A DNA stretch of 64,000 nt, from the IMG/VR virus record IMGVR_UViG_3300021425_000005; one strand, 5' to 3'. The stretch comes from a virus. The number at the start of each line of letters is the position of its first letter. The first letter of the stretch is position 1. Of the stretch, positions 1,474-38,842 are shown piece after piece. The translations under genes and the position numbers were made by a program. The notes beneath the pieces were generated by a model. That model was not told the origin of the DNA and did no database searches. It saw only the letters and a program-made list of their open reading frames with translations.

Positions 1474-3077
1474 GACAGCTTCTTCAGTTTGTATTGTTCA
1501 ATAAAGGCATTTCTTTTCTCGTCATTTTCCTTATAACGAGGGTCGTTCGTCAACTCGTAACCTGTCATATTGATGACATCATCTAAATCATATACACCGA
1601 AAGTCGTCCACCTGTGGAAGTTCCAAGACAAACATTTTTGTGAGTGAACAAATCCATTTCTGGTGATATCTGCATAATATTTAGCTTGTATCTTAGTTGC
1701 TTCCCAAAAATTCATGATGTCTGTTTCCCAAGCCATCGGAACAGCATGTTTCTTTTTATATTCTTCGGGGAATCGACCTACATGTTGGAAGTGAGTTTTG
1801 ACTTGTTCTCTGATCAGTTCAGGGATTTCATTGTAATCAATATTCCAATCATCTACATTACCTTCTCTATATAATCCCGAAGATACTGCTGTTCTATCAA
1901 ACTCGGAACTATTTTCAGCATAGACCGAGTCGTGTGATGTAGAAATAAACAATGGGGTGATTGCTATAGACTCATTAGGCATATTTTTCTGTAGCCAATT
2001 GATACCATCATCGAAAGATTCTTCAGTCTCGTTAGGTAATCCAACGATGAGGCTAGATGTTGACCGATACTTGTTATTATATTTGAGAAATGATTCTCTG
2101 CAATCTACTAATCCCTGCTTCAGACGATCTACATTTAATCCTTTACCGATAGATTTAGCAGCATCTTGATGAAATGACTCAATACCATAGAAGTGACCCC
2201 AAAGACCCATACGTTGCATATTCTCCCAGTCGTTCTGTCTTGTAACAACCAGATCTGCACGAGTGTATCCTGTCATATTCAAGTCATACCCCAGATTATC
2301 AACTACATTCGCAATGCCGAGTAGTTTCTCGGAACTGTCGTTGACGGTCTCATCAGCAATAGTATAACTGACTGTCCCCCACTGCTCATAATTTCGTTTT
2401 AGTTCATCATGTATATTGAGCATGTCGCGCTCAAAATTACCCTTCATACCGATCAAATTGTATTGACAGAATTTACATTTAAACTTACAACCTCGAGCGA
2501 ATTCTAAGTTCAACCATTCTGTTGGTTGTATGAAATCTCTTTCTTGATATCTTACCTGCAAATCTTTACACGGATACGCTGGATGATGTGTGTCCGAGCG
2601 TATGAGTTTTTTCATTCCAAGGTCAGTCTCTACTTCTTGGATGACAGGATTACCATTGTTGTTCGTTAGCTTTTTGAGTAATTCTAGCAAACCATACTCA
2701 CCATAACCTGTAATATAATAATCAAGGTCAATCGGCATCATGGTGCTGAGGTTCTTTGAACCACCCAATAGTGCTATGTCAGGATAGTTATCTCGTAGCC
2801 ATTGTATTTTTTTAGAAAGTTTTGCAGCATTCTTTGGAGTATATGAAAACATAAAACTGACACCGATGAATACAGTATCAGATGTCACCCTAGATTCTAT
2901 GAATTCTTCAAACTCATCGTCTTGCCATTCATTGATGAAGTCACAAACCTCGATATCCCAACCTTCTTCACGCAAAAAAGATGCAATACGATACGCACCT
3001 GCAGCCCTCTTCATTGAAGTCCGTTCAGGCTCTAGTAGAGTCAGCTCCTCATATCCACCTAGTAATATTCCGTGCAT
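1458..3077 (-). CDS. B12-binding radical SAM enzyme
   Basis: N-terminal cobalamin-binding-like domain (GAYRIASFLREEGWDIEVCDF, LLGG, GYGE), EFARGCKFKCKFC, ADET, YGIESF, IVGLPNET. Confidence 0.92.
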   Translation of the reverse strand: MHGILLGGYEELTLLEPERTSMKRAAGAYRIASFLREEGWDIEVCDFINEWQDDEFEEFIESRVTSDTVFIGVSFMFSYTPKNAAKLSKKIQWLRDNYPDIALLGGSKNLSTMMPIDLDYYITGYGEYGLLELLKKLTNNNGNPVIQEVETDLGMKKLIRSDTHHPAYPCKDLQVRYQERDFIQPTEWLNLEFARGCKFKCKFCQYNLIGMKGNFERDMLNIHDELKRNYEQWGTVSYTIADETVNDSSEKLLGIANVVDNLGYDLNMTGYTRADLVVTRQNDWENMQRMGLWGHFYGIESFHQDAAKSIGKGLNVDRLKQGLVDCRESFLKYNNKYRSTSSLIVGLPNETEESFDDGINWLQKNMPNESIAITPLFISTSHDSVYAENSSEFDRTAVSSGLYREGNVDDWNIDYNEIPELIREQVKTHFQHVGRFPEEYKKKHAVPMAWETDIMNFWEATKIQAKYYADITRNGFVHSQKCLSWNFHRWTTFGVYDLDDVINMTGYELTNDPRYKENDEKRNAFIEQYKLKKLSWITV

Positions 3078-3856
3078 TAAATCAAGTCTCTTAGTGTATC
3101 CCTCACTTTTGGATAATATTCATCAAACAGTTGTTTGACTTCTACAGCATTCTCGATATGCTCATATGGGTCATCGGGCAACACCTTAACATTTTTACCT
3201 GCACCATCTTTAGGAATATCATCATAATCCATTTTCATATATTCGAATTGTGGTAATTGACTTTCGTAATCTAGTTCAGTATGGACTGTCTGGAAAATAT
3301 ATCTCCTCATACGACTAATGTCAACAAACAATTTGGTTTCGTTTTTACTGTAACGCCAGTTATCATTTGTCTTTGCGAAGTAATAACTGATCAGCCTCTT
3401 TTCAAAGTCTCTATCTAAGCGAATAAACTTGAAATTGTGTTCTTGTAGGATAGATATTGTTTTTTCTAACCCTAAGAAGATGTATTGTTCACCATAAAAG
3501 AATCGACATGACAGTGGTTGGAAGTTGTCAGCTTGTGATAGTAAACCTATCTTACGATAAACCTCTTCCCAAAAATTTACTGACTGAAACTCACCAGCAC
3601 CATAATCTCTATCTTTAGAAATTATAGTGTCGCCTTCTAAATAGACTTCAGTATCTCTGATTGAAAATGGATGAAACAACTCTCCCAATTTGGCAGAGTC
3701 GCCATAGACTTCGTTGAGGTGTTTGTGTATTTGGTATTCTAAGAGGTGACTACCAGTCCTCGGCATACCGAACACACACCATCGATGGTGTTTCAAATTG
3801 TCAATCATAATATAGTTATTTAGGTCTAGTTTTCGACCTTTGCTCCACCACGCCAT
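3077..3856 (-). CDS. Sulfotransferase-fold protein (start may be an internal Met)
   Basis: N-terminal VFGMPRTGSHLL PAPS-binding-like loop, GELF, and an RLDR...RLISY motif as in Stf0-like sulfotransferases. Confidence 0.65.
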   Translation of the reverse strand: MAWWSKGRKLDLNNYIMIDNLKHHRWCVFGMPRTGSHLLEYQIHKHLNEVYGDSAKLGELFHPFSIRDTEVYLEGDTIISKDRDYGAGEFQSVNFWEEVYRKIGLLSQADNFQPLSCRFFYGEQYIFLGLEKTISILQEHNFKFIRLDRDFEKRLISYYFAKTNDNWRYSKNETKLFVDISRMRRYIFQTVHTELDYESQLPQFEYMKMDYDDIPKDGAGKNVKVLPDDPYEHIENAVEVKQLFDEYYPKVRDTLRDLI

Positions 3857-4440
3857 TGTTTACACGACCAATAACGAGCTTTGGTTTTTGGTCCAGGATT
3901 GTCGCAATTATGGCGAGCACGGAAATTCTTGCGGCGTTCTGGATCGTCTCGCTTAATTTCCATATTTGGATCACCGAAACGAACTACTTTAATTTTCTTC
4001 GTTGATGGATCACGAACATATACTTTAAATTTTTTATTAGGATTCTCAGAGGTGCGGATGATGTTATTCAGCTTCACACCTTTCTTTTCCCCATCTTCCA
4101 TGATGGTTACTTCTTCCTGAATCTCGTCCTCGGCACAATTGCCGCAGCAAGCATCAGTGCCACAATTAGGATGCTCTAGATCCTCTAGAAACTTCTCATC
4201 ATCGTGTTCGGTGTGAGCAAGGTCAGTGTCGTGGTTTAAACCACCCTTTTTCTTCTTGGCGATAAAGGCATTAACACGAGCATGTCCCCATTGTTGAGGC
4301 GTAGTTCCTGGACGGTGACCAGTTTTCCAAGCAGCGACGCCACGATTATAAACTTTGCGTAATGTTCCTACAGAGATGCCTGATTTCTTAGCTTTATCAG
4401 CCATTGCACCTTCGATGATGTGGTCATTAAACGTCTTCAT
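3826..4440 (-). CDS. Putative internal head protein, two basic modules
   Basis: N-terminus MKTFNDHIIE resembles the T4 capsid-targeting sequence. Modules KVYNRGVAAWKTGHRPG-WGHARVN and KKFKVYV-RFGD-RARHNC-ARYWSC recur in large phage/NCLDV proteins (recalled). Confidence 0.7.
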   Translation of the reverse strand: MKTFNDHIIEGAMADKAKKSGISVGTLRKVYNRGVAAWKTGHRPGTTPQQWGHARVNAFIAKKKKGGLNHDTDLAHTEHDDEKFLEDLEHPNCGTDACCGNCAEDEIQEEVTIMEDGEKKGVKLNNIIRTSENPNKKFKVYVRDPSTKKIKVVRFGDPNMEIKRDDPERRKNFRARHNCDNPGPKTKARYWSCKQWRGGAKVEN

Positions 4441-4543
4441 TTTTCTTACCCTTTGAACCGATCTTGTTATTATCTTTCCAGAGCCGTTCCAATGCTTCAG
4501 ACTTGGGAACTTTCTTTAGTTTTGGCTTTGGTATTTTCTTCAT
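4427..4543 (-). CDS. 38-aa Lys-rich microprotein MKKIPKPKLKKVPKSEALERLWKDNNKIGSKGKKNEDV
   Basis: Its ATG overlaps the TGA of the upstream gene (ATGA coupling) and it fills the gap to the next gene. Confidence 0.55.
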   Translation of the reverse strand: MKKIPKPKLKKVPKSEALERLWKDNNKIGSKGKKNEDV

Positions 4544-7101
4544 TTCTTTTTAATCTTGAATTTTTTCGCTTTATACTTAGAAGCACTGCCGCCCTTCTTG
4601 ACAACAAACTTCTTAGCTTTTTGTGATGTCATCGCACCACGCTTCTTCAGTCGATTCAACTCAGCTTTGCGCATTTGAGGAACCATACGAACAGCGATAC
4701 GAGCAATCAACGGTTGAAAGCGTTGAATCATTTTTTCAAGGCGAGACTTTTCAGCTGGTGGAAGCGAACTTTTATCGCGACCACGAAGCAATCTCTTATA
4801 CATCATACCACGTGCACCACGAGTAGCACGCATTTTAATTTTATCTGGTGTAGCAGACTTACGCATCGCACGAGCGCGAGCAACTTTCAGCTTCTGTTTA
4901 TTGCGGCGAGCAGCTTGGCGGCGTTTAATACGACCCAATGGCGTGAGTGCTTCAGTAACCTCGACATCAGAGTGAACATCATCTGGATCGATTTCGAATG
5001 TTTCGATCTCATCTGGGCTATACATGCCCAACTCAATCATATCATCAATCGTGAGATTATCAGCCTGATTCATCATATCTTGGATATCTTCGTCAGTCAG
5101 AGTGAAATCCATCGGTTCACCAATCTCAGGTTTACTGTGATCAGCCAGTTCCCAAAACTTTTTAATATCTTCAACAACATCTAATACATTTTCGCGAACG
5201 ATAAACCCATCGCCGCGATCTTTGTAACCATCGGGAATAGGGGTGCATGCCTTGCGTTGACGACACCAGTAGTATCCTTCTTCACACTTATGACCATCTT
5301 CTTCGTTTACTTGTTCTTGTTTCTTCGCTGCAGTATTTCTTTCAGCTGATTTTTTCCAGTAGTCACTTTGCGCTTTCTTTTTATCCAAGAACTTCTGGAG
5401 CCTCTTGTGAGCAGGAGACTTATATATGCCATAATCAGTTTTCTTACCGTAGAGATTAGATCCCTCATTTACTTCCTCCTCCATTTTTACTGCTTTGTAA
5501 TGATGTTTAGAAGTAGTTTTATTTTTCTTTGTGGTTTTTCCTGGCTCTCCTGGAGTTACAGCTTTCATGTATTCAGTCCCTTCAGGTGTTCCCCATTCGT
5601 ATTTGTATTCTTCAGCAGCATACTTCTTAGGGAGTTTACCTTTCTTGATTAAGTCATTCACCAAATCTGAAAGTTGTTTTGGATGTTCAGCACCCATACT
5701 TTTACGAAAGAAATCCCAAGATTTTGCTCTTGGATTCTGTTCTTTATGTTTGATCCATTGCTTCACAGCATGCTTATAGCGTTTACGATTATAGAGAACA
5801 CGGTCTAGATATTTGTCGAGGGCAGGAAACAACATCGCGCCTGTCGACTTATCACCCCAAGCACCTGCCTTTCCAAAAACTCTTTCATAGAGATCTTGCT
5901 CTTCATCTATTTTGATTTTATCAAATGTCTTTGTATCTTTAACACGCTGTTTAGAAACACGCTTCTTAACATTGCGAAGTTTGCCGATCTTTGGTAGCGT
6001 CATTGAATCGCGCTCTTCGGATTCTTCTTTATTCAAGAGATTATCGACATACTTGGTATATTTTGATGGTTTAGTTTTAGCAGTCTTGTCTCCAGGAGCT
6101 GGCTTGTATGCCTTTGGATCGCTATCTGACATCTTAGCTTGGCGTTTGAATTGAGCATCACGAGCCTTTTTAGTTGATTTGCTCAAACCTTTATGATACT
6201 TAGCAGGTTGTGAACCCTTGCGCTTGGCGATATCTTTATCTTGCGGGACTTCTGTTTTTTCTTCCATGGCATCTAACTTAGCAGCGATTGCCATTTGGCG
6301 GCGTTTTGCCTTTGACTTGCCTTTGAACTGTGGAGCATCTGACTTATAAAAATCATCAATCCAATCACCCATCGAGTCAGACGCTTTTAATTTCTCAATC
6401 AGCTCAAGCTGCTCTACAGCTTCTTCGCGCATCTTTTGTTTTTGAGCGTTCGTTATCCACTCACGTGCCTTATGATTTCTAACAGGGGCACGGACAAACT
6501 GCTGAATTTGCCGATAAGCTGATAATGTGTTAGATTCTACGTTACTGTCAGAACTATTGTCAACAATAATCATTTCATTTCTGAACATACGCTGAAACGC
6601 ACCGATGTTATTTTGAACATCATTCCACATTTTCTTTACTACATTATCAGGAAGTGTTCTTGCTCTTGCTCTATTTCTTTCAAGAGCAGTTTCAATATCA
6701 GTATTGACAAAAATCATAGCTACATCATAACCGATGTTTTTCAAAGTAATCATTTGACGCTGAATTTTCGCAACATCTTTACCAGTGCCATCGATAACGA
6801 GACCAAGACGACCGATAACTGAGAGACTCAGCTTCTTTTGCGTGAGATATTTAGCTTGTTTTCTGATAGATTGACCCTTTTCTGAGTAAATATTCTCAGG
6901 AGTCGGAGCCATTTCTGCTTTACGAAGAGCAGCTTCAAACACATCGTCAGAGTTAATAGGTCTAAGACCAAAAGTTGACAAAGCAGTTTTACCTACCATG
7001 AAGGATTTACCACTTCCTGGACCACCTGCAAGGAATACTGCCTTGAAGATTCCAGGGTCGTTCACACCCTCTGAGATAAATTCTTTAAAACTTTCGGTCA
7101 T
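4540..7101 (-). CDS. Large modular internal head protein with N-terminal P-loop kinase (zeta-toxin/PNK-like) domain
   Basis: MTESFKEFISE capsid-targeting-like start; FLAGGPGSGKS Walker A, VIDGTG, ALERNRARAR lid; followed by basic modules separated by acidic (L/I/V/M)-x-E linkers; late promoter upstream. Confidence 0.75.
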   Translation of the reverse strand: MTESFKEFISEGVNDPGIFKAVFLAGGPGSGKSFMVGKTALSTFGLRPINSDDVFEAALRKAEMAPTPENIYSEKGQSIRKQAKYLTQKKLSLSVIGRLGLVIDGTGKDVAKIQRQMITLKNIGYDVAMIFVNTDIETALERNRARARTLPDNVVKKMWNDVQNNIGAFQRMFRNEMIIVDNSSDSNVESNTLSAYRQIQQFVRAPVRNHKAREWITNAQKQKMREEAVEQLELIEKLKASDSMGDWIDDFYKSDAPQFKGKSKAKRRQMAIAAKLDAMEEKTEVPQDKDIAKRKGSQPAKYHKGLSKSTKKARDAQFKRQAKMSDSDPKAYKPAPGDKTAKTKPSKYTKYVDNLLNKEESEERDSMTLPKIGKLRNVKKRVSKQRVKDTKTFDKIKIDEEQDLYERVFGKAGAWGDKSTGAMLFPALDKYLDRVLYNRKRYKHAVKQWIKHKEQNPRAKSWDFFRKSMGAEHPKQLSDLVNDLIKKGKLPKKYAAEEYKYEWGTPEGTEYMKAVTPGEPGKTTKKNKTTSKHHYKAVKMEEEVNEGSNLYGKKTDYGIYKSPAHKRLQKFLDKKKAQSDYWKKSAERNTAAKKQEQVNEEDGHKCEEGYYWCRQRKACTPIPDGYKDRGDGFIVRENVLDVVEDIKKFWELADHSKPEIGEPMDFTLTDEDIQDMMNQADNLTIDDMIELGMYSPDEIETFEIDPDDVHSDVEVTEALTPLGRIKRRQAARRNKQKLKVARARAMRKSATPDKIKMRATRGARGMMYKRLLRGRDKSSLPPAEKSRLEKMIQRFQPLIARIAVRMVPQMRKAELNRLKKRGAMTSQKAKKFVVKKGGSASKYKAKKFKIKKK

Positions 7102-7994: not shown

Positions 7995-7996
7995 AA

Positions 7997-8584
7997 TTAA
8001 TCCTTAATAAATTCTGAAAAGGAAACATAAGTTTCTTTTAGTTGCATTCCTTCGCGCACATCATTGAATAGCTGTTTAGCACCTCGATAGCCAGCTGGTA
8101 ATCCACGCTTAAAATTAGTAAAATCGTTATTCTTCGCATATAATCGCATTTTGCTGGCACTAATACCAGTCACACCCTCAGCATCTGGGTCTCGGTCGCC
8201 AGAAGATACAACCTTAATCGACTTGAAGTTGAAATCTTTGCCGTTGTATTGTTTCAACAAACGCTCAAACTCTGGGACACGGTCAGAGCCAGCAACGAAA
8301 ATAAGATTGTCATATTTACCAGTCAGTAAAGCAAGCTGCTTAATAAATGATGGATGTGTTTTATCCGAAGATTTTATATTGCTATTCGGAAACATCGCTT
8401 TCAGATGTTTGACTTTTGTTTTAGTGTCTAGCGGATTTTTATTTTTGTCTTGGCTATGACTCGCCACAATTAGATGATCTGCTCGACTTGTTTGTGCGAG
8501 GCGTTTTACCTTCGCAATCAACTTACCGTGACCATTAGTTGGTGGGTTCATACGACCAAATGCGAATACTACTGTTTTACTCAT
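7997..8584 (-). CDS. Cytidyltransferase-like (HxGH) nucleotidyltransferase
   Basis: FGRMNPPTNGH, KNPL, VAGSDRV, ISASKMR. Confidence 0.85.
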   Translation of the reverse strand: MSKTVVFAFGRMNPPTNGHGKLIAKVKRLAQTSRADHLIVASHSQDKNKNPLDTKTKVKHLKAMFPNSNIKSSDKTHPSFIKQLALLTGKYDNLIFVAGSDRVPEFERLLKQYNGKDFNFKSIKVVSSGDRDPDAEGVTGISASKMRLYAKNNDFTNFKRGLPAGYRGAKQLFNDVREGMQLKETYVSFSEFIKD

Positions 8585-9825
8585 TTATCCCATGCCTTGA
8601 TAGCGGTGAAGTTATTAAAACTAAATTCCATTCTATCAACGAGTTTAACAGCATTGCCAGCCACTCGATCAATCGCAACATAACCTTCAGGTGTTGTAAC
8701 CTTAAATCCGTTGCTTGTTCTAATAAATGTTCCGATACTCTTTACTCTATTTAGTTTGCCAATAATCATATCCTTCGCTTCAACGATCCCTGACATAAAA
8801 GCAAAGATATTGCCGAGAAGTTCTTGGTGTGATTTCAATAGAGTTAGTGTTTCTTTTTTTCTTTGTTCTAATGCTTTCTGAGATTTTTCAGTTTTAAGTT
8901 TTGCGATCTCAGAATCAAATTTATCAGAAACATGCTGTAGATAACCAGCAGCATGTGACTTGTTTATTTTAGTTTGCGCTCTCACTTTTGTATTGATGTA
9001 AGTTTTAACATTAGCACCAACCATTTTGCCAGTGAGAGAATTCTGTAGATTGAGAAATGCACTTAACTTATTGCTGTCAATCTTTCTGAATGTCAAACCG
9101 ACGCCAGATAAGACACGAGTAATCTGATCAGTCTCAGTCTTCGTGAATGTTGCCATACCAGATGTATCTTTGTAAGTAGCATCATCCATCCAAACAGATG
9201 AAATCTTACGCAGACCGCTGATGTTAGCACCAAAAGATGCTTTCATTTCAGGCAACGATCGTCCAGTATATGACGTATGCCAAACCACACCAATCTTTGC
9301 TTTTTTAAACTTTGCGTCCAGTGGCGTTCCCTGAGGAACAGCATAGACAATAGTATTAGGTTGGAAAGTTGTGTGTCTTTGACCATCAATCATAGTGGAC
9401 TCAAGGTCTTCCGATGTAAACATCAGATCGCCTTGAATTACATTTGTAATGCCCAGTTTAGAAAACTCTGAAAGGGCAATACTAAATTTCTTTTTAAGCG
9501 AAGGTTGCAACTTGGTATCATTATTGATGTCAGATTGCGACTTATAGAGGAGGGGAGTTTTATTAAAAACTGATTTCTTTGCGACGAAAAACTTTCCGTC
9601 GGCAGGATCGATACCTGCAAAAATGGCTGGTGCGCCATCCCACTTAACAGTCATGTTAATAGAGGAACGACTGCTACCAGCCAACATATCTCTCAGAGAG
9701 CGTAGAAAATTGATAGAGCCTCTCGCTCCACCAATACCAAAGTTTAGGATTTCGTCTTCGATGTGCTCAAGGTGCAAGTTCTTACCTTGTGCATCTTCAT
9801 TCAGAAATGTCCTTAGACTTTGCAT
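8581..9825 (-). CDS. Conserved phage protein with ATP-dependent ligase-like motifs; probable internal head protein
   Basis: MQSLRTFLNE start; HLEHIED; KWDG (motif I), QGDLMF (III), EGYVA (IV), VKLVDR (V). Confidence 0.7.
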   Translation of the reverse strand: MQSLRTFLNEDAQGKNLHLEHIEDEILNFGIGGARGSINFLRSLRDMLAGSSRSSINMTVKWDGAPAIFAGIDPADGKFFVAKKSVFNKTPLLYKSQSDINNDTKLQPSLKKKFSIALSEFSKLGITNVIQGDLMFTSEDLESTMIDGQRHTTFQPNTIVYAVPQGTPLDAKFKKAKIGVVWHTSYTGRSLPEMKASFGANISGLRKISSVWMDDATYKDTSGMATFTKTETDQITRVLSGVGLTFRKIDSNKLSAFLNLQNSLTGKMVGANVKTYINTKVRAQTKINKSHAAGYLQHVSDKFDSEIAKLKTEKSQKALEQRKKETLTLLKSHQELLGNIFAFMSGIVEAKDMIIGKLNRVKSIGTFIRTSNGFKVTTPEGYVAIDRVAGNAVKLVDRMEFSFNNFTAIKAWDK

Positions 9826-10329: not shown

Positions 10330-10484
10330 TAGTAATCGAGCCTCCTAGCTTCTACAATTTGACGGCATTGTTCTAACCATTCAAAATACCCCTTATTACC
10401 TTTATAGAATTCCTGCTTCTCAGGAGTCCCAAAAGTGTTTAGCACCCATTGTGCTTGTTCTGGGTCTTTACCGTGATACGACAT
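10329..10484 (-). CDS. 51-aa hypothetical (MSYHGKDPEQAQWVLNTFGTPEK...)
   Basis: Manual translation; GAGG SD; overlaps the end of the TauD-like gene. Confidence 0.65.
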   Translation of the reverse strand: MSYHGKDPEQAQWVLNTFGTPEKQEFYKGNKGYFEWLEQCRQIVEARRLDY

Positions 10485-11352
10485 TACGTTCCTCTATAAA
10501 TTTTACTTTACCAACATTACTGATTGGGAAAGTATATCGATGAAGTAATCTGTTTTCAAACACTTCATCACTTCTAACAGGTCTTCGATGTAAAGTCAAC
10601 AACTGATCAGACAAAACTATGTCGCCGACTTCCCATTCGTGGTGATACATAAACTTTTCTTGAAAGAGATATTCTTTAAGTTCAAAATATAACTCTACAT
10701 CTTTTTCAATAATACGCAAATCATTGTTGTCGTAAAAATATAAACCCTTTGTCCCAGCAATATTTTCTTGTTCAATGAACATCGAATAATCGTGGCGGTT
10801 TTTACGCATAAATTCTAATTGGTCAACATTGTCAATGTCTGCCCAATTTTCCATATTATATGTATACGAGCAACGGACGCCTGAGATCTTTTCTTTTAAT
10901 TGCTCAGGCATTTGTTCATATGCAACAGCTGTGTTAAGCCAAGATGTAACTGTTCCCTCTACGCCGCGAATACCTTGAAGAGCCACACCATCTGCACGGT
11001 CTGGACCATTTAAATTCGCATGCCAATCAAGTTTACCTCTAGGAAATATTCCTGAATAATGACCATTCTTCTTCTCGGCTGTCACACGCTGGACAGGATA
11101 TACATTGCAATCCCATGGATCGATATAGGTTTTCCACTGGTCAGCGACGTATTCCCCATTTTCATTCCACACACATTGACCAAAATTAGAAATGGTGTTA
11201 TTCATGCCGTGAATAAGGCGAGCGAATTTATAAGAATCTGTAGGCTGGTTTTTAATAACAACAACCAATTCTTTTTTCAGAGTTTCTAAAACATTATCGC
11301 AATCAACTCTTGTCAAATTATCAAGGTCAATATCTACAATCTTATGTGTCAT
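10468..11352 (-). CDS. TauD/TfdA-family 2OG-Fe(II) dioxygenase-like (H-x-N variant)
   Basis: LVVVIKNQ, WHAN, T-W-N...AYEQMP, YHHEWEVGDIVLSDQLLTLHRR, RLLHR. Confidence 0.85.
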   Translation of the reverse strand: MTHKIVDIDLDNLTRVDCDNVLETLKKELVVVIKNQPTDSYKFARLIHGMNNTISNFGQCVWNENGEYVADQWKTYIDPWDCNVYPVQRVTAEKKNGHYSGIFPRGKLDWHANLNGPDRADGVALQGIRGVEGTVTSWLNTAVAYEQMPEQLKEKISGVRCSYTYNMENWADIDNVDQLEFMRKNRHDYSMFIEQENIAGTKGLYFYDNNDLRIIEKDVELYFELKEYLFQEKFMYHHEWEVGDIVLSDQLLTLHRRPVRSDEVFENRLLHRYTFPISNVGKVKFIEERNVVSR

Positions 11353-12012: not shown

Positions 12013-12858
<846 letters not shown>

Positions 12859-12964: not shown

Positions 12965-13192
12965 TTACCGCTTTGTGTTTTTAATAGCGGTCTTTGTCTT
13001 CTCGATTTTGTCCACAACACGCTCATCTTCCCAAGCGAGGAAGTTGTGAATCTTGCGCAATATCCACAATTGTGTCATGCGTAGACTGTTACCACGAGGA
13101 AGTGCCCATCCTGCCATAAAAGCAATAATGACGGCATAACCGTGAACAATGGTTTGAACAAGAATTTCAATAGGATCCATAATTTTCTCCAT
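12965..13192 (-). CDS. Small membrane protein (start possibly 13180)
   Basis: One hydrophobic segment; GGAG SD precedes the second Met. Confidence 0.6.
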
Positions 13193-13200
13193 AATTAAAC

Positions 13201-13283
13201 AAGTTGTGGGCTAACCGTTGACCCACGCGAGACTATTTATGGCGTCTAACCCACAGAGTGTAGTGCTACTGCACCATTCCGAC
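13201..13283 (-). ncRNA. Candidate structured RNA / regulatory leader
   Basis: Hairpins TGGTGC-AGTA-GCACTA and AGAC-GCCATAAATA-GTCT, and two GTGGG segments that can each pair with CCCAC, in a GC-richer intergenic gap. Confidence 0.4.
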
Positions 13284-13299
13284 CAAGTCAATTTTTACA

Positions 13300-13614
13300 T
13301 CATTCTGAGATGGAACCGAGTTTTTTCTTAACTCGCTTCATACTATCGCGAACCGCGACAGATTTCTTATCTTTCTTGCCATAATCATCAGCAAGTTTAG
13401 ATGTTGGATTTGCTTCAGCAATTTTTGAAAGAACTTCCTTGAAACCATCATCGGGCTTAGTTCTATCACCAGTGCCACCAACGATAGAAGGTGCTTTACT
13501 AATGAATCGTTCTATGTGAGGATTTTCTTCAAGATATTGTTCAGACGCCGAGAACGACATCATCTCTTCAAACTCTTCACCAGTGATGTTATTTCTGAAT
13601 GAATAAATCGGCAT
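13300..13614 (-). CDS. Conserved T4-like small protein (FmdB-like, Cys-less)
   Basis: MPIYSFRN..TGEEFE...YLEENP...GFKEVLSKI pattern common in T4-like phages. Confidence 0.75.
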   Translation of the reverse strand: MPIYSFRNNITGEEFEEMMSFSASEQYLEENPHIERFISKAPSIVGGTGDRTKPDDGFKEVLSKIAEANPTSKLADDYGKKDKKSVAVRDSMKRVKKKLGSISE

Positions 13615-13748
13615 TATTTCTTCCTTCGTTGCTTTCTTAACCTACTATATAGGCGAGATGTCCGATCAAAAATAATGTCTTTTAAATAACGCCGACGCTG
13701 ACGAGCAGTTTCAGATTTATGAAGACGCTCACTTCTAGATTGAGTCAT
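13614..13748 (-). CDS. 44-aa Arg-rich microprotein (MTQSRSERLHKSETARQRRR...)
   Basis: GGAG SD upstream of ATG 13748; the longer ORF-track start would overlap the tRNA. Confidence 0.65.
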   Translation of the reverse strand: MTQSRSERLHKSETARQRRRYLKDIIFDRTSRLYSRLRKQRRKK

Positions 13749-13763
13749 TATATACTCCATTAA

Positions 13764-13840
13764 TGGTGATCTCGGGAAGACTTGAACTTCCAACACCCAG
13801 TTTAGAAGACTGGTGCTCTATCCAGTTGAGCTACGAGACC
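13764..13840 (-). tRNA. tRNA-Arg(UCU)
   Basis: Anticodon arm CCAGT-CT TCT AA-ACTGG; TTCAAGT; encoded CCA. Confidence 0.96.
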
Positions 13841-13929
13841 TATTTTTTCTTGTTCCGCCGAGCCTTACGCTTCCCAGAACCGATCTTCCGACGACCTTTT
13901 GGTGGTCGGTTTTTATGTGGCCAAGGCAT
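13840..13929 (-). CDS. 29-aa basic microprotein MPWPHKNRPPKGRRKIGSGKRKARRNKKK
   Basis: Manual translation; GGTGAG SD-like upstream; TAG overlaps the first base of tRNA-Arg. Confidence 0.65.
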   Translation of the reverse strand: MPWPHKNRPPKGRRKIGSGKRKARRNKKK

Positions 13930-14098
13930 GTGTGCTCACCCAGTTACCAGACTGATCGAAAACTGCGACAGGCACATCAGCTGCAACATCAAACTTGTTG
14001 CGAATGTAAGCCAAGTCACCGTCAGAAGGGAAGTTGGTCACATCGCGTGACAGCTTCACTGCAAAGATCTCTTTCAGACCTTCTTCATTTTTTGCCAT
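13913..14098 (-). CDS. Hypothetical protein
   Basis: TAATG coupling, GGAG upstream. Confidence 0.65.
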   Translation of the reverse strand: MAKNEEGLKEIFAVKLSRDVTNFPSDGDLAYIRNKFDVAADVPVAVFDQSGNWVSTHALAT

Positions 14099-14361
14099 TA
14101 CAAATCTCCGTCAAATAGCTGTTGTTCATTGAGATCCTCAATCATTGTTTCGAGTTCCTCAATAGTAAAGTGGTCTAACGAACCACGTGGTCGGACGCCG
14201 TAGCAACCTTTCCATGCTTCTGAGAAAGCGCACTCAACAGTATAGCGTTCAAACTGCTCAACAGTTTCGATGCCATACTGCTTCCAGTGTTCTGGATCCT
14301 CTGTTATTTTCCAGACTTCACCTTCATTCAATGTTTGAATATGTTGGATAAGTGCTTCCAT
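14098..14361 (-). CDS. Conserved phage hypothetical early protein
   Basis: DPEHW..YGI.TVEQF...K..YGVRPR pattern; coupled to its neighbours. Confidence 0.7.
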   Translation of the reverse strand: MEALIQHIQTLNEGEVWKITEDPEHWKQYGIETVEQFERYTVECAFSEAWKGCYGVRPRGSLDHFTIEELETMIEDLNEQQLFDGDL

Positions 14362-25797: not shown

Positions 25798-26593
25798 TAT
25801 TGTCACCATAATACAAAGCAATTCTATGCATTTCTCTTTCCTTGATATTCTCAAATGCCTCACGTTGATGTAATGTTAGCCACTGATCAGAAATGACAAC
25901 ATCACCATCGACCCAATCGTGATGATACATATGATATGGATCTAGTGCATGCTCAACGATAATTTCGTGCAATTCTTCAAATTTATCTTCATGTGTTGGT
26001 GAATGAGATATTTGTAGGAATGGGTAATACAATCCTTTTTGACCCTCAGAGTTTTCGCGGACAACATCAAACGCTGTCTCTGAAACTACATCATTGAAGA
26101 AAGATTTTTCAGAACCACCATTAACTTCAGCGACATGCTTAGTGTGGATCTTCATTGTTTCAAGTTCGGTTTGTATCTCTGCTGGCAGGGATTCATATAC
26201 CTTTACCATATTAATCCAGCTAGTCCTTGACCCCATCGAACCCTTGTTCGCATAAATCCAAACAATCGAATGTCGGTCAGGTTTTGTGACAGAATTAGCA
26301 TGCCACTCAAGCGTCTCTGGTTTGTGAAATAATCCTGGACGACCATCGTGACCAATCGCACCCGTGACACGAGTTACACCATCGGCAATCGATAGACTGC
26401 CCATGCGTTCTCGTTTCCAGTCATTATCCCAATGTGATTCGACTTCACCAATCATCTTACAGAATGTTAATTGTTCTTCTGGTGTAATATGTTGGTTTCT
26501 TATAACAACGATTAAATGTTCAGCAAGTGCCTCTGATACAATATCAGCTGTGTCTTGTGTTGGATTTTTTAGATCAACCCCTAAATTCAACAT
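25790..26593 (-). CDS. TauD/TfdA-family dioxygenase-like (H-x-N variant)
   Basis: LIVVIRNQ, WHAN, TSWIN..VYESLP, YHHDWVDGDVVISDQWLTLHQR, REMHR. Confidence 0.85.
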   Translation of the reverse strand: MLNLGVDLKNPTQDTADIVSEALAEHLIVVIRNQHITPEEQLTFCKMIGEVESHWDNDWKRERMGSLSIADGVTRVTGAIGHDGRPGLFHKPETLEWHANSVTKPDRHSIVWIYANKGSMGSRTSWINMVKVYESLPAEIQTELETMKIHTKHVAEVNGGSEKSFFNDVVSETAFDVVRENSEGQKGLYYPFLQISHSPTHEDKFEELHEIIVEHALDPYHMYHHDWVDGDVVISDQWLTLHQREAFENIKEREMHRIALYYGDNNA

Positions 26594-27523: not shown

Positions 27524-28129
27524 CTAACCAATTTTATCTTCAGAACCAACGCCATCAGAAAGTTCAAGCGTTAAGTCTTCACCACCTGTATCATACTCTT
27601 CACCCTTCAAAAAGGCAAGAATATTCTGCGGCGATGATACACCATAAGGGTCATCATCAGCATTGTTGCGGAAACCACGCTCAATGAATGAATTGACAAT
27701 CTCATAGTTTTCTACGACAATAGCGTATCGCCATGACCTGATACCAAAACCAAGATTGTCTTTAGCAACATCCATACCCATAGCTGATGTGAACAGATTT
27801 GATCCATCAGGAATAACCTGCACATGATTCAAACCTTGGTCTTTTGCCCAGCAATTCATTACGAAGGCATCGTTTACTGAAATACAAAAGATGTTTTCAA
27901 CACCCAGTTCTTGAAACTCTGGAAAAAGTTTCTCAAAGTCTGGTAGTTGATATGTAGAGCAAGTTGGTGTAAATGCTCCAGGAAGTGAAAAGATAATGTT
28001 CTTTCCACGCCCAACGATTTCGTGTGTTGTTTTTTGTTCCCAGCGATATGGATTATCGCCCCCAATGCTTTCATCGCGCACACGAAGCTGATGAACAACA
28101 TTAGGAATACGGCGTGGCCATGGTGGCAT
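27524..28129 (-). CDS. Peroxiredoxin (Prx5/redoxin type)
   Basis: LPGAFTPTCS, SVNDAFVM, PDG, RSWRY. Confidence 0.92.
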   Translation of the reverse strand: MPPWPRRIPNVVHQLRVRDESIGGDNPYRWEQKTTHEIVGRGKNIIFSLPGAFTPTCSTYQLPDFEKLFPEFQELGVENIFCISVNDAFVMNCWAKDQGLNHVQVIPDGSNLFTSAMGMDVAKDNLGFGIRSWRYAIVVENYEIVNSFIERGFRNNADDDPYGVSSPQNILAFLKGEEYDTGGEDLTLELSDGVGSEDKIG

Positions 28130-29185: not shown

Positions 29186-29768
29186 TCAAATATTCCAATA
29201 CTTTATTATCATTTCCATTAATTATATGATATGAAACAAATTGTTTCGTAAATTTATATGTAACAGGATTTTCATAATTAACAAACTCTATTACTTTATC
29301 TTCACGTTTATATCGTTCAGGAGTTTTGTTTAAGTTTGTTATAACATTTCTTCCTGACAAATTATATGTATTAAAGAAGTTTATCCAGCTATCATATTTC
29401 TCAAAAATTACAGAATCATATAATTGATGAAAAAATTTAGTGTAATTTCTCACTCTTGTAAATTTATTAACCGTGTGATCAGCATACGCTCTTGACAACA
29501 CACATGCATTAATTTCTGGTATGTGTATTAAACCAGCACAACAGATTATTTCATCATCTTTCTCATAGATGTAGAATCCATTTTTGTCACCATCATAAAT
29601 TTTCTGTATGTATAATTGATGATACAATGTCTCAGGTCTTGTTTGCCAGTCAACTAATTCGACATTCCTTGCTGCAGGATGTGGATCGTTCTGCGCAGAT
29701 TGGCAGAACTTCATTAACTTATCACTTGTATAAGAACTGTCGACCCTAAAGAGCATCAAATTTTCCAT
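29169..29768 (-). CDS. GNAT-like acyltransferase (tentative)
   Basis: FYIYEKDDEIICCAGL...VLSRAY beta-strand pattern. Confidence 0.5.
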   Translation of the reverse strand: MENLMLFRVDSSYTSDKLMKFCQSAQNDPHPAARNVELVDWQTRPETLYHQLYIQKIYDGDKNGFYIYEKDDEIICCAGLIHIPEINACVLSRAYADHTVNKFTRVRNYTKFFHQLYDSVIFEKYDSWINFFNTYNLSGRNVITNLNKTPERYKREDKVIEFVNYENPVTYKFTKQFVSYHIINGNDNKVLEYLNGISC

Positions 29769-30537
29769 AAAGTTTATCGCAAAAATCTTTTGCCCCCAAA
29801 CGAAGGGCGTTATGAAATTGTCCTAACTCTGTGTTGTCATAAACATAGATCGGCATATTTTCAACTACAACATATTCGAGTTCTTCGCGCTTTCTACAAA
29901 CAGCATTATGTAATGAATCTTCGGCTGCGAGCAACTCTTCATCAAATCTTATCGTAGCACCTTTCTTTGAGAACATAAATGGTCTATTCATTGGAACACC
30001 GCCAACTGTAAAGGCTTTTAAGTAATCAAATAACTTCATAATATCAGCTAGTTCATTGCGAGGAACTGACTTCCATATCTGTCGTAAAAAATGTCTAGAT
30101 TGCAACCATTCAGATGTTGTGATTTCACCTTCTGGGATTAAGACATTAGTTTCACCTAATGCTAAGACGTCAAACTCATGCGTCCCTATAAATTGGTCAA
30201 TTTCTTCTCTGGCATCAGGTGTTAGATAGTCATCACCATCAATAAGAACAAGATAGTCATGTTCAGTTTTTTGAAAATAATCTAACACAGAGTTTTTACC
30301 GCGCCCTGGAGTGCCATTAGATTCACTGATGTGGACAGGAAATTCATACTCGGTTGAAATAGTTTGAGCCAGAGAGGCAAAGTCGTTGTCTGTTGTATTA
30401 ATAACGACAATCCGCTCTTGAGGAGAGGAGTTAGAGTTCACGGATCGCAGACACCGCTTTAACTTCTCTGGCTTATCGCTGGTTAAAACAGCGAATAGGA
30501 TATTATTCTTCGAAACCGATTTCATCAATAAACTCAA
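29746..30537 (-). CDS. Glycosyltransferase (GT-A/GT2-like)
   Basis: LKRCLRSV, SNGTPGRGKN, LIDGDD, AEDS. Confidence 0.8.
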   Translation of the reverse strand: MSLLMKSVSKNNILFAVLTSDKPEKLKRCLRSVNSNSSPQERIVVINTTDNDFASLAQTISTEYEFPVHISESNGTPGRGKNSVLDYFQKTEHDYLVLIDGDDYLTPDAREEIDQFIGTHEFDVLALGETNVLIPEGEITTSEWLQSRHFLRQIWKSVPRNELADIMKLFDYLKAFTVGGVPMNRPFMFSKKGATIRFDEELLAAEDSLHNAVCRKREELEYVVVENMPIYVYDNTELGQFHNALRLGAKDFCDKLYGKFDAL

Positions 30538-30790: not shown

Positions 30791-31158
30791 TCGCCATGCT
30801 CTAGGTCGTGCACATGTAGTGCGATCAACCCATAATGCAAAACTTTCATCAAGTCTTTGCGATTGTAACCATCCTTCTTACCATAGCGTTGAGCATACTT
30901 CATGATATTCCCGATACAGAAACCTTCACCATGCCCACCATCGATGATAAACTCAGTGGCTTGAAACTGATTCGTCGAATAATGCTCACCATATGTAGCA
31001 TCGACATATTTTTGAAGGTCAGCCAGAAGCTGACCCTCATTGTATTTGTAATTGATTTGATTATCATAGGACGTGGGTGTCCCATCAAACCCAGCAGGTA
31101 ATTTAGAAATCTTCTTTGACTTCATCATCTTCCTCATTATTAAGTTCAACACCAGCAT
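30787..31158 (-). CDS. DUF3310-like conserved phage protein (start uncertain)
   Basis: YKYNEG..TYGEHY..GFCIGNIMKYAQRYGKK..DLMKVLHY. Confidence 0.8.
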   Translation of the reverse strand: MLVLNLIMRKMMKSKKISKLPAGFDGTPTSYDNQINYKYNEGQLLADLQKYVDATYGEHYSTNQFQATEFIIDGGHGEGFCIGNIMKYAQRYGKKDGYNRKDLMKVLHYGLIALHVHDLEHGE

Positions 31159-32227
31159 CGACCTTAGTATATAGGTCTAAGAATGCTTGCCTTGTATCTT
31201 CATCAAAACGGTTTACACACAACTCGATTGCTTTCAACCGATCTTCAAACATAGCATACGCATTTACAATATGCTCGATCCGACGAGTGGAGACGAGATC
31301 CTCGATCGCACCCTCTTTGAAAGTCTTACGAATCACATCTGCCCAGCGGACAAGTTTCTCAGCGAAGTCTTCATCGACTTTACCAACTTTGTTCATCTTC
31401 CCGAGAACGATCTTCAACTCTTGAGCCTCAGTCGGATATTGCTGCTCAACAGTCACAGCGAAACGCTCGAGGAATGCCTCGTCGAGGATCTGGGCAGAGA
31501 TGAATTTACCATCATCCGAGCCACGACCTTTAGTGTTAGCAGTCGCGATTACATTAAAGCCAGCAGCAGGTGTGATCACCTCACCAGTCTTCTTGTTGAA
31601 GTATGGCTTGCCTTCGAGGATAGCCTGAAGACACATCAATTTATTAGAGCCACGATCCAACTCATCGAGAATCAGAACAGCACCACGCTTCATAGCGGTA
31701 AGGACTGGACCTTCACGATAGACCACATTGCCATCGACCAGTGTATTACCGCCGATCAAATCATCTTCGTCAGTCTCTACAGAGATATTGACACGGATAG
31801 CTTCGCGCTTCAGTTTAGCGCAAACCTGTTCAACCATCGTGGTCTTACCGTTACCTGATAAACCAGAGATGAAAGTCGGATAGAAAATACCAGACTTGAC
31901 AATCTTGACAAGGTCACGGTGGAAACCAAACGCGACATATGTCGCATCGACCACAGGGACAAGGTTATCAACTTCGACAGCCAACTTAGCTTGTGTCACG
32001 ATCTTAGCATCCTCAACAGGAGTGGGTGCAGGATTGGAGGCAACAACCCTCAAACCAGCAGCTTCAACTGAATATTTATTGTGACCAACTTTGTGCTCAC
32101 GGAAAAACCAATGCGGATACGAAACACCGATACGCTCGGCGAGACTTGCAATCTCAGGACGAGTAAAGATGGCTTGACTTTCACCAGCCAAGGCATCCAA
32201 CAATTTTTGACGATTCAATTTAGACAT
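31103..32227 (-). CDS. CobS-like/MoxR AAA+ ATPase
   Basis: GLSGNGKTT, ETDEDDLIGG, LDELD, ATANTKG, AFLERF. Confidence 0.92.
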   Translation of the reverse strand: MSKLNRQKLLDALAGESQAIFTRPEIASLAERIGVSYPHWFFREHKVGHNKYSVEAAGLRVVASNPAPTPVEDAKIVTQAKLAVEVDNLVPVVDATYVAFGFHRDLVKIVKSGIFYPTFISGLSGNGKTTMVEQVCAKLKREAIRVNISVETDEDDLIGGNTLVDGNVVYREGPVLTAMKRGAVLILDELDRGSNKLMCLQAILEGKPYFNKKTGEVITPAAGFNVIATANTKGRGSDDGKFISAQILDEAFLERFAVTVEQQYPTEAQELKIVLGKMNKVGKVDEDFAEKLVRWADVIRKTFKEGAIEDLVSTRRIEHIVNAYAMFEDRLKAIELCVNRFDEDTRQAFLDLYTKVDAGVELNNEEDDEVKEDF

Positions 32228-34526: not shown

Positions 34527-34535
34527 CACCTAATA

Positions 34536-34907
34536 TTACATTTTATCAAAATATCTTGTAATTGCTTTGATTTTTTCAATCTGTCTATCAATAATAGCTG
34601 TTCTATTTGGCCATTTAATGATGTCTTTTTCAGGATTCTTTTTCAGATTGAGTAGGAGAGGCAGGATAAGATCCTCAACATCTCGGAGTTTAGTCGCCAC
34701 ATCTTGCTCCACCAATGCTCTATGGTCGTTAATCATATCGGAGTTATCAGCTGTGATGATACGAGCCTCAAGCTGTTCAAGTTTGTCCATAATAGTTTCA
34801 ATCTGATCAGAAGGAATCTCAGCCTGAACAAGTTGCGTTGATACAGGACTTACCTCAAGTTCGTCCTCGTCTACCATAGTGAAACCAAAATCGAAATCGT
34901 CAGACAT
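34536..34907 (-). CDS. Conserved T4-like hypothetical protein
   Basis: DFDFGFT.VDEDEL...PLLLNLKKNPEK..IKWPNR. Confidence 0.8.
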   Translation of the reverse strand: MSDDFDFGFTMVDEDELEVSPVSTQLVQAEIPSDQIETIMDKLEQLEARIITADNSDMINDHRALVEQDVATKLRDVEDLILPLLLNLKKNPEKDIIKWPNRTAIIDRQIEKIKAITRYFDKM

Positions 34908-37106: not shown

Positions 37107-38167
37107 GCTAAGTTTCTTGCTTCTACATAAAGAGTTTTCATCACAGTCTTCAGCTTCTCTCTATCTAGGTCAGTCTGAATGTTATCAATATAATCATCTA
37201 GTAAAGTTATTGTGTCTTCTAAATTGAGATTATCAGCATCAATTGCGTCATCTTCAAACTCAGAAAAGTCTTCAATAATTTTAAGTTCAATTAAATTGCA
37301 GCTTTCAAGTTTGTCAATAAAATTATCGAACCTTGAGAAATCAGATTTATTTACAACAACAACCTTTACAGATCCGCCCTTAACACGATCAAAATCAATA
37401 GCATCGAGACTTGCTCGAGAAGCATCATCTGAGTCGTTGTAATAAAATTTGTGAAAGATGTTAAAGGGGTTTTGAACAAACTCAAGTTCATCTGTTTCTG
37501 TATCATAGATGTGAAAGCCTCTAGGGTCATCATAATCGCTCCAAGTAATTTCATAAGGATTACCAAGATAAGTAATGTTGCCATTGCTACTACGGTGGTG
37601 AAAATGACCAGAGCAAACAAGGGAAAACTTATCAAATATAGATGGATCCATTCCATGGTCATTCGCATGCCCTTTATACATCTGGAACCCAGCGAGTTCA
37701 TAGTGTCCAAAACATACTGTAGCGTCTGTTTCATTGATTGCCTCCATAGTCTGTTTGTAGTTGTCAGAGCAGATCCATGGTGTAAATAGAATGTTCTTTT
37801 TACCAAAAGACAACTCAGTTACTTCAGGATATATCTGAATATTATCATAATCTTTGAGCAACAATTCTGGAGAGTTTACCTCATTGGTGTTCTTAAAATA
37901 AGTATCATGATTTCCTGGAATCATATGCATATCAATCTGCATCTGTTCAGTTTTATCAAAGAAATACTCACGACATTTTTTATATGTGTTGAAGTTGATA
38001 AACTTACGTCGATCGAAAATATCACCCAAGTGAATGATAGTTTTGATTTGCCGTTTTTCAAGTTCTGGAAAAAATGTTTGAGAATAAAACTTTTCAAAAA
38101 AGTTATCAAATGGGATTGAGTCTGACCTCGCACCGAAGTGCGTATCAGTTATCAGTGCTATTTTCAT
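37103..38167 (-). CDS. gp47: Recombination nuclease subunit gp47
   Basis: TDTHFG, LGDIFD, GNHD, GHFH. Confidence 0.97.
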   Translation of the reverse strand: MKIALITDTHFGARSDSIPFDNFFEKFYSQTFFPELEKRQIKTIIHLGDIFDRRKFINFNTYKKCREYFFDKTEQMQIDMHMIPGNHDTYFKNTNEVNSPELLLKDYDNIQIYPEVTELSFGKKNILFTPWICSDNYKQTMEAINETDATVCFGHYELAGFQMYKGHANDHGMDPSIFDKFSLVCSGHFHHRSSNGNITYLGNPYEITWSDYDDPRGFHIYDTETDELEFVQNPFNIFHKFYYNDSDDASRASLDAIDFDRVKGGSVKVVVVNKSDFSRFDNFIDKLESCNLIELKIIEDFSEFEDDAIDADNLNLEDTITLLDDYIDNIQTDLDREKLKTVMKTLYVEARNLA

Positions 38168-38507
38168 TACGAATATCCGTTGCGGAGATTGATTCAATCT
38201 CCTCTCCTAAATGCTCTTGTTCAATTATATATCCAACATCCCGACCATAAGTTATATGTGTGATGTTTGCTGAGCGCGATAATTCAAAATCTACACCATA
38301 AATATACCCTTCTGCCTCCAAAGAGTCAACAATATTTTTTGAGACAGTTTTCCAGTCGTATGGATTGTTTTCGTCTTTTGGCATGCGCCTCACTGTGATG
38401 AGGACTTGACCAGTTTTTTGAAGGGCTTTTTTAAATAGTTCTGTATGCCCTCGATGCCATGGCTGGTATCTTCCAAGGAGGAGCGTAGTTGGTTTAGTCC
38501 AATCCAT
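38145..38507 (-). CDS. HxGH nucleotidyltransferase (cytidyltransferase/ATP-sulfurylase-like)
   Basis: GRYQPWHRGH, NPY, YGRDVGY, ISATDIR; own AGGA SD. Confidence 0.8.
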   Translation of the reverse strand: MDWTKPTTLLLGRYQPWHRGHTELFKKALQKTGQVLITVRRMPKDENNPYDWKTVSKNIVDSLEAEGYIYGVDFELSRSANITHITYGRDVGYIIEQEHLGEEIESISATDIRNENSTDN

Positions 38508-38842
38508 TTTGTAATCCTAACATCATATTCGTTACGCTTTGGTCTTTCAAAAAGTTTATTTGTATCTTCGAATCTACCTTCTTTGATGGTGTCCATCCAT
38601 ATCACAAAGTGTGGGTCACAGATACTTCTTATTTGTTTAGTTGGAGCGATAAAATCTAAAATACCCCACTGATCGCGCATATACAATGCTTGCTCTATTC
38701 TTCCACCGCGACTAAAATCCCAATTGTCAGTATATTCTCGAACAACATCTGCATTATGGTATGGAACACGAAAATGAAATGCTAGTTCGCTGGCAAGAGT
38801 AGTCTTACCAGATCCTGGAAGTCCCATTATCAAAATTTTCAT
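38390..38842 (-). CDS. Adenylylsulfate (APS) kinase-like P-loop protein
   Basis: MGLPGSGKTT, NADVVR, WDFS..GR, DFIAP, FERP. Confidence 0.75.
   Translation of the reverse strand: MKILIMGLPGSGKTTLASELAFHFRVPYHNADVVREYTDNWDFSRGGRIEQALYMRDQWGILDFIAPTKQIRSICDPHFVIWMDTIKEGRFEDTNKLFERPKRNEYDVRITKWIGLNQLRSSLEDTSHGIEGIQNYLKKPFKKLVKSSSQ

Follow-up and report, generated by a model that had tools for sequence, protein, structure and literature searches.

Can a phage activate sulfate for its own use? The question is raised by IMG/VR virus record IMGVR_UViG_3300021425_000005, a stretch of 64,000 nucleotides (hereafter the window) in which an earlier look at the letters alone had pointed to a sulfation pathway of three genes: an ATP-sulfurylase-like nucleotidyltransferase (NTase) and an adenosine 5'-phosphosulfate (APS) kinase, together forming a minimal 3'-phosphoadenosine 5'-phosphosulfate (PAPS) synthase, and a sulfotransferase to consume the product. 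The answer we favor, at a probability of roughly 0.55, is that the kinase and NTase genes form a mini PAPS synthase, split over two genes, that supplies phage sulfotransferases, but one whose NTase would be a new ATP sulfurylase, derived from nicotinamide mononucleotide adenylyltransferase (NMNAT). The NTase would adenylylate sulfate (ATP + sulfate -> APS + PPi), the trimmed kinase would phosphorylate the 3'-OH of APS to give PAPS, and PAPS would feed phage sulfotransferases, here the protein encoded at 3077-3856. Carrying its own module would let a phage sulfate its target in hosts that have neither Sat nor CysDN, such as SAR11 or SAR86. We infer both enzyme activities, and the direction of flux through them, from domain identities, gene architectures, gene neighborhoods, and the genomes that carry the module without any known sulfurylase.

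The source is a marine T4-type phage. Homologs of T4-type gp46/gp47, UvsX, gp41, gp44 and gp45 are encoded in the window, almost every gene of which lies on the minus strand, and a megablast search with 20 kb of the window found no match among deposited phages. The three predicted open reading frames (ORFs) are all on the minus strand as well, and their coordinates are confirmed. The features concerned are these:

38842..38390, minus strand: ORF of 150 amino acids (aa) for an APS-kinase-like P-loop kinase, with the P-loop GLPGSGKT intact.
38504..38842, minus strand: residues 1-113 of the kinase ORF, a trimmed APS-kinase-like domain matching phrog_10255 positions 2-113.
38390..38503, minus strand: residues 114-150 of the kinase ORF, an out-of-frame tail that reads through the start of the NTase gene.
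38145..38507, minus strand: minimal HxGH/ISxTxxR nucleotidyltransferase (the NTase), 120 aa, matching phrog_10255 positions 125-228 and PF01467.
38505..38518, minus strand: the kinase/NTase junction, consisting of AGGA and the NTase ATG, as read from the sequence.
3077..3856, minus strand: divergent sulfotransferase-family protein, 259 aa, the presumed consumer of PAPS.

All three predicted genes are present, but they form no cluster in the window, where the kinase-NTase pair and the sulfotransferase gene are 35 kb apart.

The kinase and NTase ORFs overlap by 118 nt, the NTase frame being -1 relative to that of the kinase. Both match phrog_10255, a family of 230 positions, the kinase with an E value of 9e-21 and the NTase with 1e-20, so they are two halves of a single phage protein family rather than chance ORFs. 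Homology of the kinase to its relatives is limited to residues 1-113; the DNA of the remaining tail encodes, in the other frame, the conserved HxGH region of the NTase. The NTase ATG (38507-38505) is preceded, after a 7-nt spacer, by AGGA (38518-38515), and sits within ACA-AAA-TGG of the kinase frame, a layout that allows independent initiation of the NTase. The same split with an identical junction is kept in an independent assembly (G001, about 97% identical over the stretch), so it is no sequencing error. A programmed -1 frameshift at A-AAA-T that yields a kinase-NTase fusion product is conceivable. We do not favor it, since the NTase has a Shine-Dalgarno sequence and ATG of its own, and since SAR86 encodes kinase and NTase as two separate genes.

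Elsewhere the two halves are joined in several ways. Aquatic phages as well as SAR11 and SAR86 bacteria often have a fused kinase-NTase protein of roughly 260 aa, and a large protein collection contains about 1,900 such fusions of 250-280 aa; in Xylella phage Sano (gp35), Stenotrophomonas phage DLP6 and others, both halves form one gene of about 245 aa annotated as "kinase." Two phage loci (L010 and L013) have kinase and NTase as two adjacent ORFs. Separate genes also occur at 38 cellular loci, most of them SAR86-type, where the end of the kinase gene (about 136 aa) and the NTase gene (130 aa) share a few bases. A 355-kb viral contig, L161, has the reverse order (13170-14152): the module opens with the NTase, the kinase that follows carries a fused DUF2061 membrane domain, and a sulfotransferase lies 2.4 kb upstream. 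The window kinase is 45-53% identical to the kinase halves of phage fusions and to stand-alone SAR86 kinases. Since the window proteins resemble the SAR86 two-gene form (48-53% identity) no less than the phage fusions, the split in the window is a naturally occurring architecture rather than just a fusion that broke apart. The "Rosetta stone" behavior of the two domains, found fused, adjacent or permuted, counts in favor of the mini PAPS synthase. (The mini NTase domain also occurs without the kinase, in a 317-aa protein from an ENA metagenome, P0003, where it is fused to a C-terminal Fic/DOC domain, PF02661.)

What, then, is the kinase? That it is APS-kinase-like, as predicted, is borne out for the family. 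A PDB search with a profile built from 90 fused homologs ranks APS kinases first (2yvu at E 5e-11, then about 15 further APS kinase entries), its further matches including 2gks, 3cr7, 1d6j and PAPSS1/2, and the alignments span the P-loop, the D-x-x-R and F-S...R...Q motifs, and the (I/V)-x-P segments. In HMMER alignments the GLPGSGKT, NADVVR, WDFSRGGRIEQ and DFIAP of the window kinase align to the corresponding APS-kinase segments; the window protein has the P-loop together with the N-terminal motifs D-x-x-R, F-S-x-x-x-R-x-x-N/Q and (I/V)-x-P, whose residues we take, by analogy with APS kinase structures, to bind APS. The fold was assessed on P0004, a fused homolog 47% identical to the window kinase, rather than on the window protein. 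Its AlphaFold2 (AF2) model, with a mean predicted local distance difference test score (pLDDT) of 89.8, has APS kinases as its best Foldseek matches (the top 30 are mostly APS kinases) and as its top five in VIA (Z 15.4-16.6, root-mean-square deviation 2.1-2.4 A over 126-140 residues), with gluconate kinases next (Z 14.1-14.7).

Family models add that these proteins, judged by their sequences, are trimmed relatives of APS kinase. Kinase-only relatives exceed the cut-off of 21.1 bits for Pfam PF01583 (L103 at 60.5 bits), as does the kinase of the permuted L161 module (32.9 bits). The NCBIfam equivalog cut-off is reached by no kinase relative (59 vs 138.7 bits), because only the first half of the NCBIfam models is matched: the relatives align over positions of about 4-92 of 152 (Pfam) or 21-108 of 184 (TIGR00455), and the lid region is not covered.

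The state of the window copy counts against an active enzyme there. It has no PF01583 (APS_kinase) match at E<=0.1, and the highest-scoring APS-kinase model of NCBIfam gives it 23.5 bits, where 127 are required. Compared with 90 aligned relatives it carries the substitutions D44N, R54E and R58Y, at positions where the family residue is kept in 90 of 90 (44 and 58) or 89 of 90 (R54). The helix that follows the RQxxRM motif is shorter by about 10 residues, and the terminal helix after ITKW is gone, with 37 out-of-frame codons in its place; this tail has no homology to the C-terminal helix and linker found in all relatives downstream of ITxW. The window kinase is the most eroded member encountered, somewhat degenerate rather than the best exemplar of the module. 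These same lesions would be expected if the pair were a decaying remnant in this phage, its kinase inactivated by loss of the linker and C-terminal helix and no longer supplying PAPS. We judge that improbable, as the kinase retains its P-loop, D32/R35, WDFS, GR, DF..P and GRFEDTN motifs, and the NTase, with its own initiation signals, keeps all 24 invariant positions of a 29-sequence domain alignment (the arrangement is also kept in G001, though at 97% identity that genome is too close to gauge selection).

The NTase raises the sharpest question, and here the original prediction does not hold: the domain is not Sat-like beyond its HxxH. Sat-type ATP sulfurylases are defined by HxxH together with QxRN and GRD loops. 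The NTase, with its motifs GRYQPWHRGH and ISATDIR, has HRGH, and GRYQP stands where Sat has QxRNP. Its match to PF01747 (Sat), 17.9 bits against a cut-off of 24.3, covers 38 residues around HxxH only, and a PDB search with a profile of the NTase domain alone has no ATP sulfurylase among its matches at E<=10. It does match PF01467, at 24.7 bits. The nearest solved relatives are NMNATs, namely MJ0541 (E 1e-7) followed by the NadM-type 2qjt and 2qjo, a result that, like the missing similarity to Sat, tells against a sulfurylase; in a protein atlas the matches are solely viral "cytidylyltransferase-like" clusters. By descent the domain is a shortened relative of archaeal/NadM-type NMNAT and not a Sat-type ATP sulfurylase, so any ATP-sulfurylase activity would be a new invention.

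Descent from NMNATs invites a different account, in which the pair serves salvage of nicotinamide adenine dinucleotide (NAD): the kinase would be a nicotinamide-riboside kinase, as in the C-terminal domain of NadR, and the NTase an NMN adenylyltransferase. The best Pfam match of the window kinase is indeed AAA_28 (29.4 bits), the best NCBIfam and PDB matches of the NTase are NMNATs, and GRxQPxHxGH with ISxTxxR are archaeal NMNAT-type motifs. Yet the NMNAT models score far under their cut-offs (25.4 vs 127 bits for TIGR01527, 23.2 vs 181 bits for PRK01153), only the first 60 or so residues of the NTase align to NMNATs, and in the second half of the domain 16 residues stand opposite 41 of MJ0541 (residues 68-108), a deletion of about 25 from a region that presumably carries the nicotinamide-binding residues. 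The invariant positions of the phage/SAR family (among them G12, R13, Q15, P16, H18, G20, H21, R40, Y87, G88, R89, S108, T110 and R113) include two arginines that NMNATs lack, R40 and R89, the latter in an invariant YGR(D/G)VGY loop (YGRDVGY in the window) that recalls the GRD loop of ATP sulfurylase. Partial alignment, deletion and extra arginines together make it unlikely that the NTase is an NMNAT. On the kinase side, the family profile fits APS kinases above NadR (E 5e-11 vs 1e-5), and the recurrent neighbors described below are sulfotransferase and cysQ, with no NAD genes among them. We give NAD salvage very little credence.

In other phages the predicted tie of the module to sulfotransferases is found. 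A Sulfotransfer_3 gene (PF13469) scores above cut-off in 13 of 50 IMG/VR contigs that have the fusion, most of them small fragments; it is always upstream on the same strand, in 11 cases within 4 kb. With hidden Markov models (HMMs) of our own, a sulfotransferase-like gene is found in the fetched flanks of 30 of 82 fusion loci, representing 11 of 31 lineage groups defined at 80% identity, and 34 of 35 such flanking genes are co-oriented with the fusion. Directly after the fused gene, L040 (E 6e-8) and L018 (E 1e-5) have genes of the window sulfotransferase's own family. When all neighboring ORFs are clustered without bias, the sulfotransferase cluster takes second place in frequency; RCC1-repeat proteins are commoner, the T4 core genes less common. 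Other recurrent neighbors are methyltransferase, epimerase and HldE-like genes. An hhalign screen of the 106 most widespread neighbor clusters (150-700 aa) found no cryptic sulfotransferase cluster beyond cluster 2, and about two-thirds of the phage loci have no sulfotransferase within the sequence fetched, which weakens the case.

The RCC1-repeat (WD40_RLD) proteins, the commonest neighbors of the fusion, occur at 29 loci (L003, L005, L055 and 26 others) in 11 lineage groups, often in multiple copies beside the sulfotransferase; they may be fiber or decoration proteins.

The reverse test gives the same association. Among 80 viral loci centered on a sulfotransferase of this type, 52 have the kinase or the fusion immediately downstream, a sample dominated by one lineage (the module is present in 6 of 28 more diverse loci); in an L066-like lineage the stop codon of the sulfotransferase and the start codon of the module overlap. 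The 52 divide evenly into 26 with the full fusion and 26 with a kinase-only gene that has no NTase ORF in its vicinity; many phages can therefore do without the NTase. This division raises the possibility that only the kinase serves sulfation, turning APS from the host (made by Sat, CysDN or AprAB) into PAPS, while the NTase has some other adenylyl-transfer or regulatory role. The stand-alone kinases, such as L103, are moreover the most canonical members of their family, and the relatives of the NTase are NMNATs rather than sulfurylases. What speaks for the NTase, apart from its being joined or adjacent to the kinase in three arrangements, comes from cells.

The module is found in at least 572 genome contigs, mainly from Pelagibacteraceae, SAR86, SAR116 and other Alphaproteobacteria. 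At eight cellular loci it is preceded, at a distance of 16 nt, by a Sulfotransfer_3 gene (132 bits), and at eight loci a bona fide cysQ is adjacent (TIGR01331, 295 bits vs a cut-off of 228.8). Fifty carrier genomes were searched for sources and users of APS. Initiation factor IF-2 (TIGR00487), the completeness control, is found in 47 and Sulfotransfer_3 (PF13469) in 36; Sat (PF01747) is found in 2, CysD (TIGR02039) in 4-6, and AprA (TIGR02061) in 5 (named control genomes were positive as expected for Sat, CysD and IF-2, and none was positive for AprA). Thus 42-44 of the 50 have neither Sat nor CysD and 45 have no AprA. SAR11 is commonly said to have no assimilatory sulfate activation. On the complete SAR86 chromosome (G087) the module is accompanied by two sulfotransferases, and Sat, CysD and AprA are all absent. 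An APS-kinase relative together with PAPS-using enzymes, in genomes with no known source of APS, is the classic signature of a missing enzyme, and the NTase is the obvious candidate, since in these genomes it is always fused or adjacent to the kinase.

The cellular evidence is not all of one kind. Six to eight of the 50 carriers do have a canonical ATP sulfurylase, a point against the need for a second one, and in two SAR11-type single-cell assemblies (L184 and L185) aprA (about 1000 bits) and the kinase-NTase gene are separated by 2.5-3 kb, as a module supplied with APS by AprAB would have it; no Sat gene was found in either assembly. Weighing these against the many carriers that have sulfotransferases and no recognizable APS source, we regard a role for the kinase only as unlikely. 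That part of the prediction which proposed a minimal PAPS synthase feeding a sulfotransferase is supported by gene context and by the carriers free of Sat and CysD, if not in its choice of a Sat-type first enzyme. Carried to its full extent, our reading would make the 110-130-aa NMNAT-derived domain a minimal new ATP-sulfurylase family, which with a lid-less APS kinase would form the smallest known PAPS synthase, spread in T4-like aquatic phages and filling the sulfate-activation gap of SAR11 and SAR86 (which have sulfotransferases and CysQ, and no Sat or CysDN); for this broader proposal we put the odds at about even.

The presumed consumer of PAPS in the window, the protein at 3077-3856, is a divergent member of the sulfotransferase family from a rare clade, as far as sequence and model can tell, in agreement with what had been predicted. 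A 96%-identical copy occurs in another sample (there are two close homologs in all), and an exhaustive search yields 37 representative relatives. In an alignment of 35 sequences, P32, R33 and G35 of the 5'-phosphosulfate-binding (5'-PSB) loop are conserved at 90% or more, and R149 and S157 of the 3'-phosphate-binding (3'-PB) motif are invariant; the conserved signatures are exactly P-R-x-G-S/T and R...S, those of PAPS binding. On its own the protein scores 13.6 bits against a Pfam sulfotransferase cut-off of 27 (E 0.08), which argues against the assignment; among the 35 relatives, PF13469 is matched by 14 (best E 6e-7) and PF00685 by 7. A PDB search with the family profile has sulfotransferases at the top (7 of the 9 matches listed; best 9vki, E 2e-4), and the family HMM cross-matches canonical phage and SAR86 sulfotransferases. 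The AF2 model (pLDDT 85) has the fold: its top VIA match is Stf0 (Z 10.4, 176 residues aligned), many SULT, NST and TPST entries follow at Z 7.7-9.0 spanning residues 23-259, and over shorter spans P-loop kinases come close to these scores. The top 12 Foldseek matches are all sulfotransferases, with weak E values of about 1e-3.

Contigs carrying the relatives P0121, P0123, P0125 and P0127 have no kinase-NTase gene, but at 5-15 kb they are too short relative to the 35-kb spacing in the window. G001, only a 33-kb fragment, has no sulfotransferase gene.

This clade lies recurrently beside radical-SAM/SPASM and fatty-acid (FA) desaturase-like genes (in the window, L006, L089 and L092), and at a guess the acceptor of its sulfate group may be a product of such adjacent enzymes. 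The neighbors in the window are as follows:

1-1473 and 1458-3077, minus strand: tandem pair of B12-binding radical-SAM genes, abutting the sulfotransferase-like gene.
40337-42388 and 42358-44340, minus strand: second tandem pair of B12-binding radical-SAM genes.
12079-12858, minus strand: FA_desaturase-like gene, just under the Pfam cut-off.
3826-4440, minus strand: DUF5824/DUF5754 gene, its last 31 nt shared with the beginning of the sulfotransferase-like gene, an order kept in L006.

In L092 up to five radical-SAM/SPASM genes stand in a row beside a relative of the window sulfotransferase, and in L089 FA-desaturase genes flank another relative, P0123.

TauD-type dioxygenases had been put forward as a source of sulfate. 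Two TauD-family genes exist in the window, and this link was rejected, as TauD-family genes are not among the recurrent neighbors of the module. These and the other genes noted in the window are:

10468-11352 and 25790-26593, minus strand: TauD/TfdA-family dioxygenase genes, 72 and 111 bits.
38842-39378, minus strand: phrog_624 / Pyr_excise-like gene, directly upstream of the kinase.
39777-40343, minus strand: Rv2179c-like 3'-5' exoribonuclease gene.
29746-30537, minus strand: GT2 glycosyltransferase gene.
27524-28129, minus strand: peroxiredoxin gene.
31103-32227, minus strand: CbbQ/NorQ-like AAA ATPase gene.
7997-8584, minus strand: a further nucleotidyltransferase gene, its product normal in size (195 aa; CTP_transf_like at 33 bits), beside a DUF6267 gene (8581-9825).
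4540-7101, minus strand: gene for a protein of 853 aa that combines a P-loop at the N-terminal end with a long C-terminal part rich in lysine and arginine and hence very basic; the L006 homolog has Zeta_toxin/AAA_33 matches.

Should the NTase make APS, it would represent a third and very compact route to that compound, besides Sat and CysDN, and SAR11 and SAR86, among the most abundant bacteria of the ocean, could make PAPS for sulfation. Many phages of aquatic habitats would be self-sufficient in sulfation, with glycans of the virion or host surface, lipids, and small molecules as possible targets, and auxiliary genes called as "cysC" in viromes would be genes of sulfation rather than of sulfur assimilation. 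A PAPS synthase of about 250 aa would also be useful for PAPS regeneration in biocatalysis. In the literature searched, neither a PAPS synthase of phages nor a sulfotransferase module encoded by them is described; PMC10434257 mentions PAPS reductase only.

Several known systems come close to the proposed one. PAPS synthases (metazoan PAPSS1/2, 1x6v; the Aquifex Sat-APS kinase fusion, 2gks) likewise combine an APS-kinase-type domain with an HxxH nucleotidylyl-transferase domain; PAPSS has the same kinase-first order, and PAPS-synthase structures are matched by the kinase half of the module. They differ from it in that the second domain of the module is NMNAT-like and of 110-120 aa, where the Sat domain (PF01747) has about 350-400 aa, in that its kinase covers approximately the first 90 positions of APS-kinase models, with the lid trimmed, and, for the window, in that the halves are separate overlapping genes. 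Archaeal/NadM NMNATs (MJ0541, 1f9a; Francisella NadM, 2qjt) share GRxQPxHxGH, the NPF motif and ISxTxxR with the NTase, which is about 50 residues shorter, adds the invariant R40 and the YGR(D/G)VGY loop, and is found in a genomic context of sulfation instead of NAD metabolism. Stf0, NodH and the cytosolic SULTs (PF13469/PF00685) have the 5'-PSB and 3'-PB motifs and the fold in common with the 3077-3856 protein, which is set apart by its great divergence, its score below the Pfam cut-off when taken alone, and its radical-SAM/SPASM and FA-desaturase-like neighbors. A parallel in logic is the rhizobial system of NodP/NodQ and NodH, in which a private sulfate activation is encoded beside the sulfotransferase. 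NodPQ, paralogs of CysD and CysN-CysC, are a dedicated PAPS supply for the NodH sulfotransferase, and a NodH-type lipopolysaccharide sulfotransferase (9vki) is the best PDB profile match of the window sulfotransferase family. In the phage module the first step would fall instead to an unrelated mini NTase.

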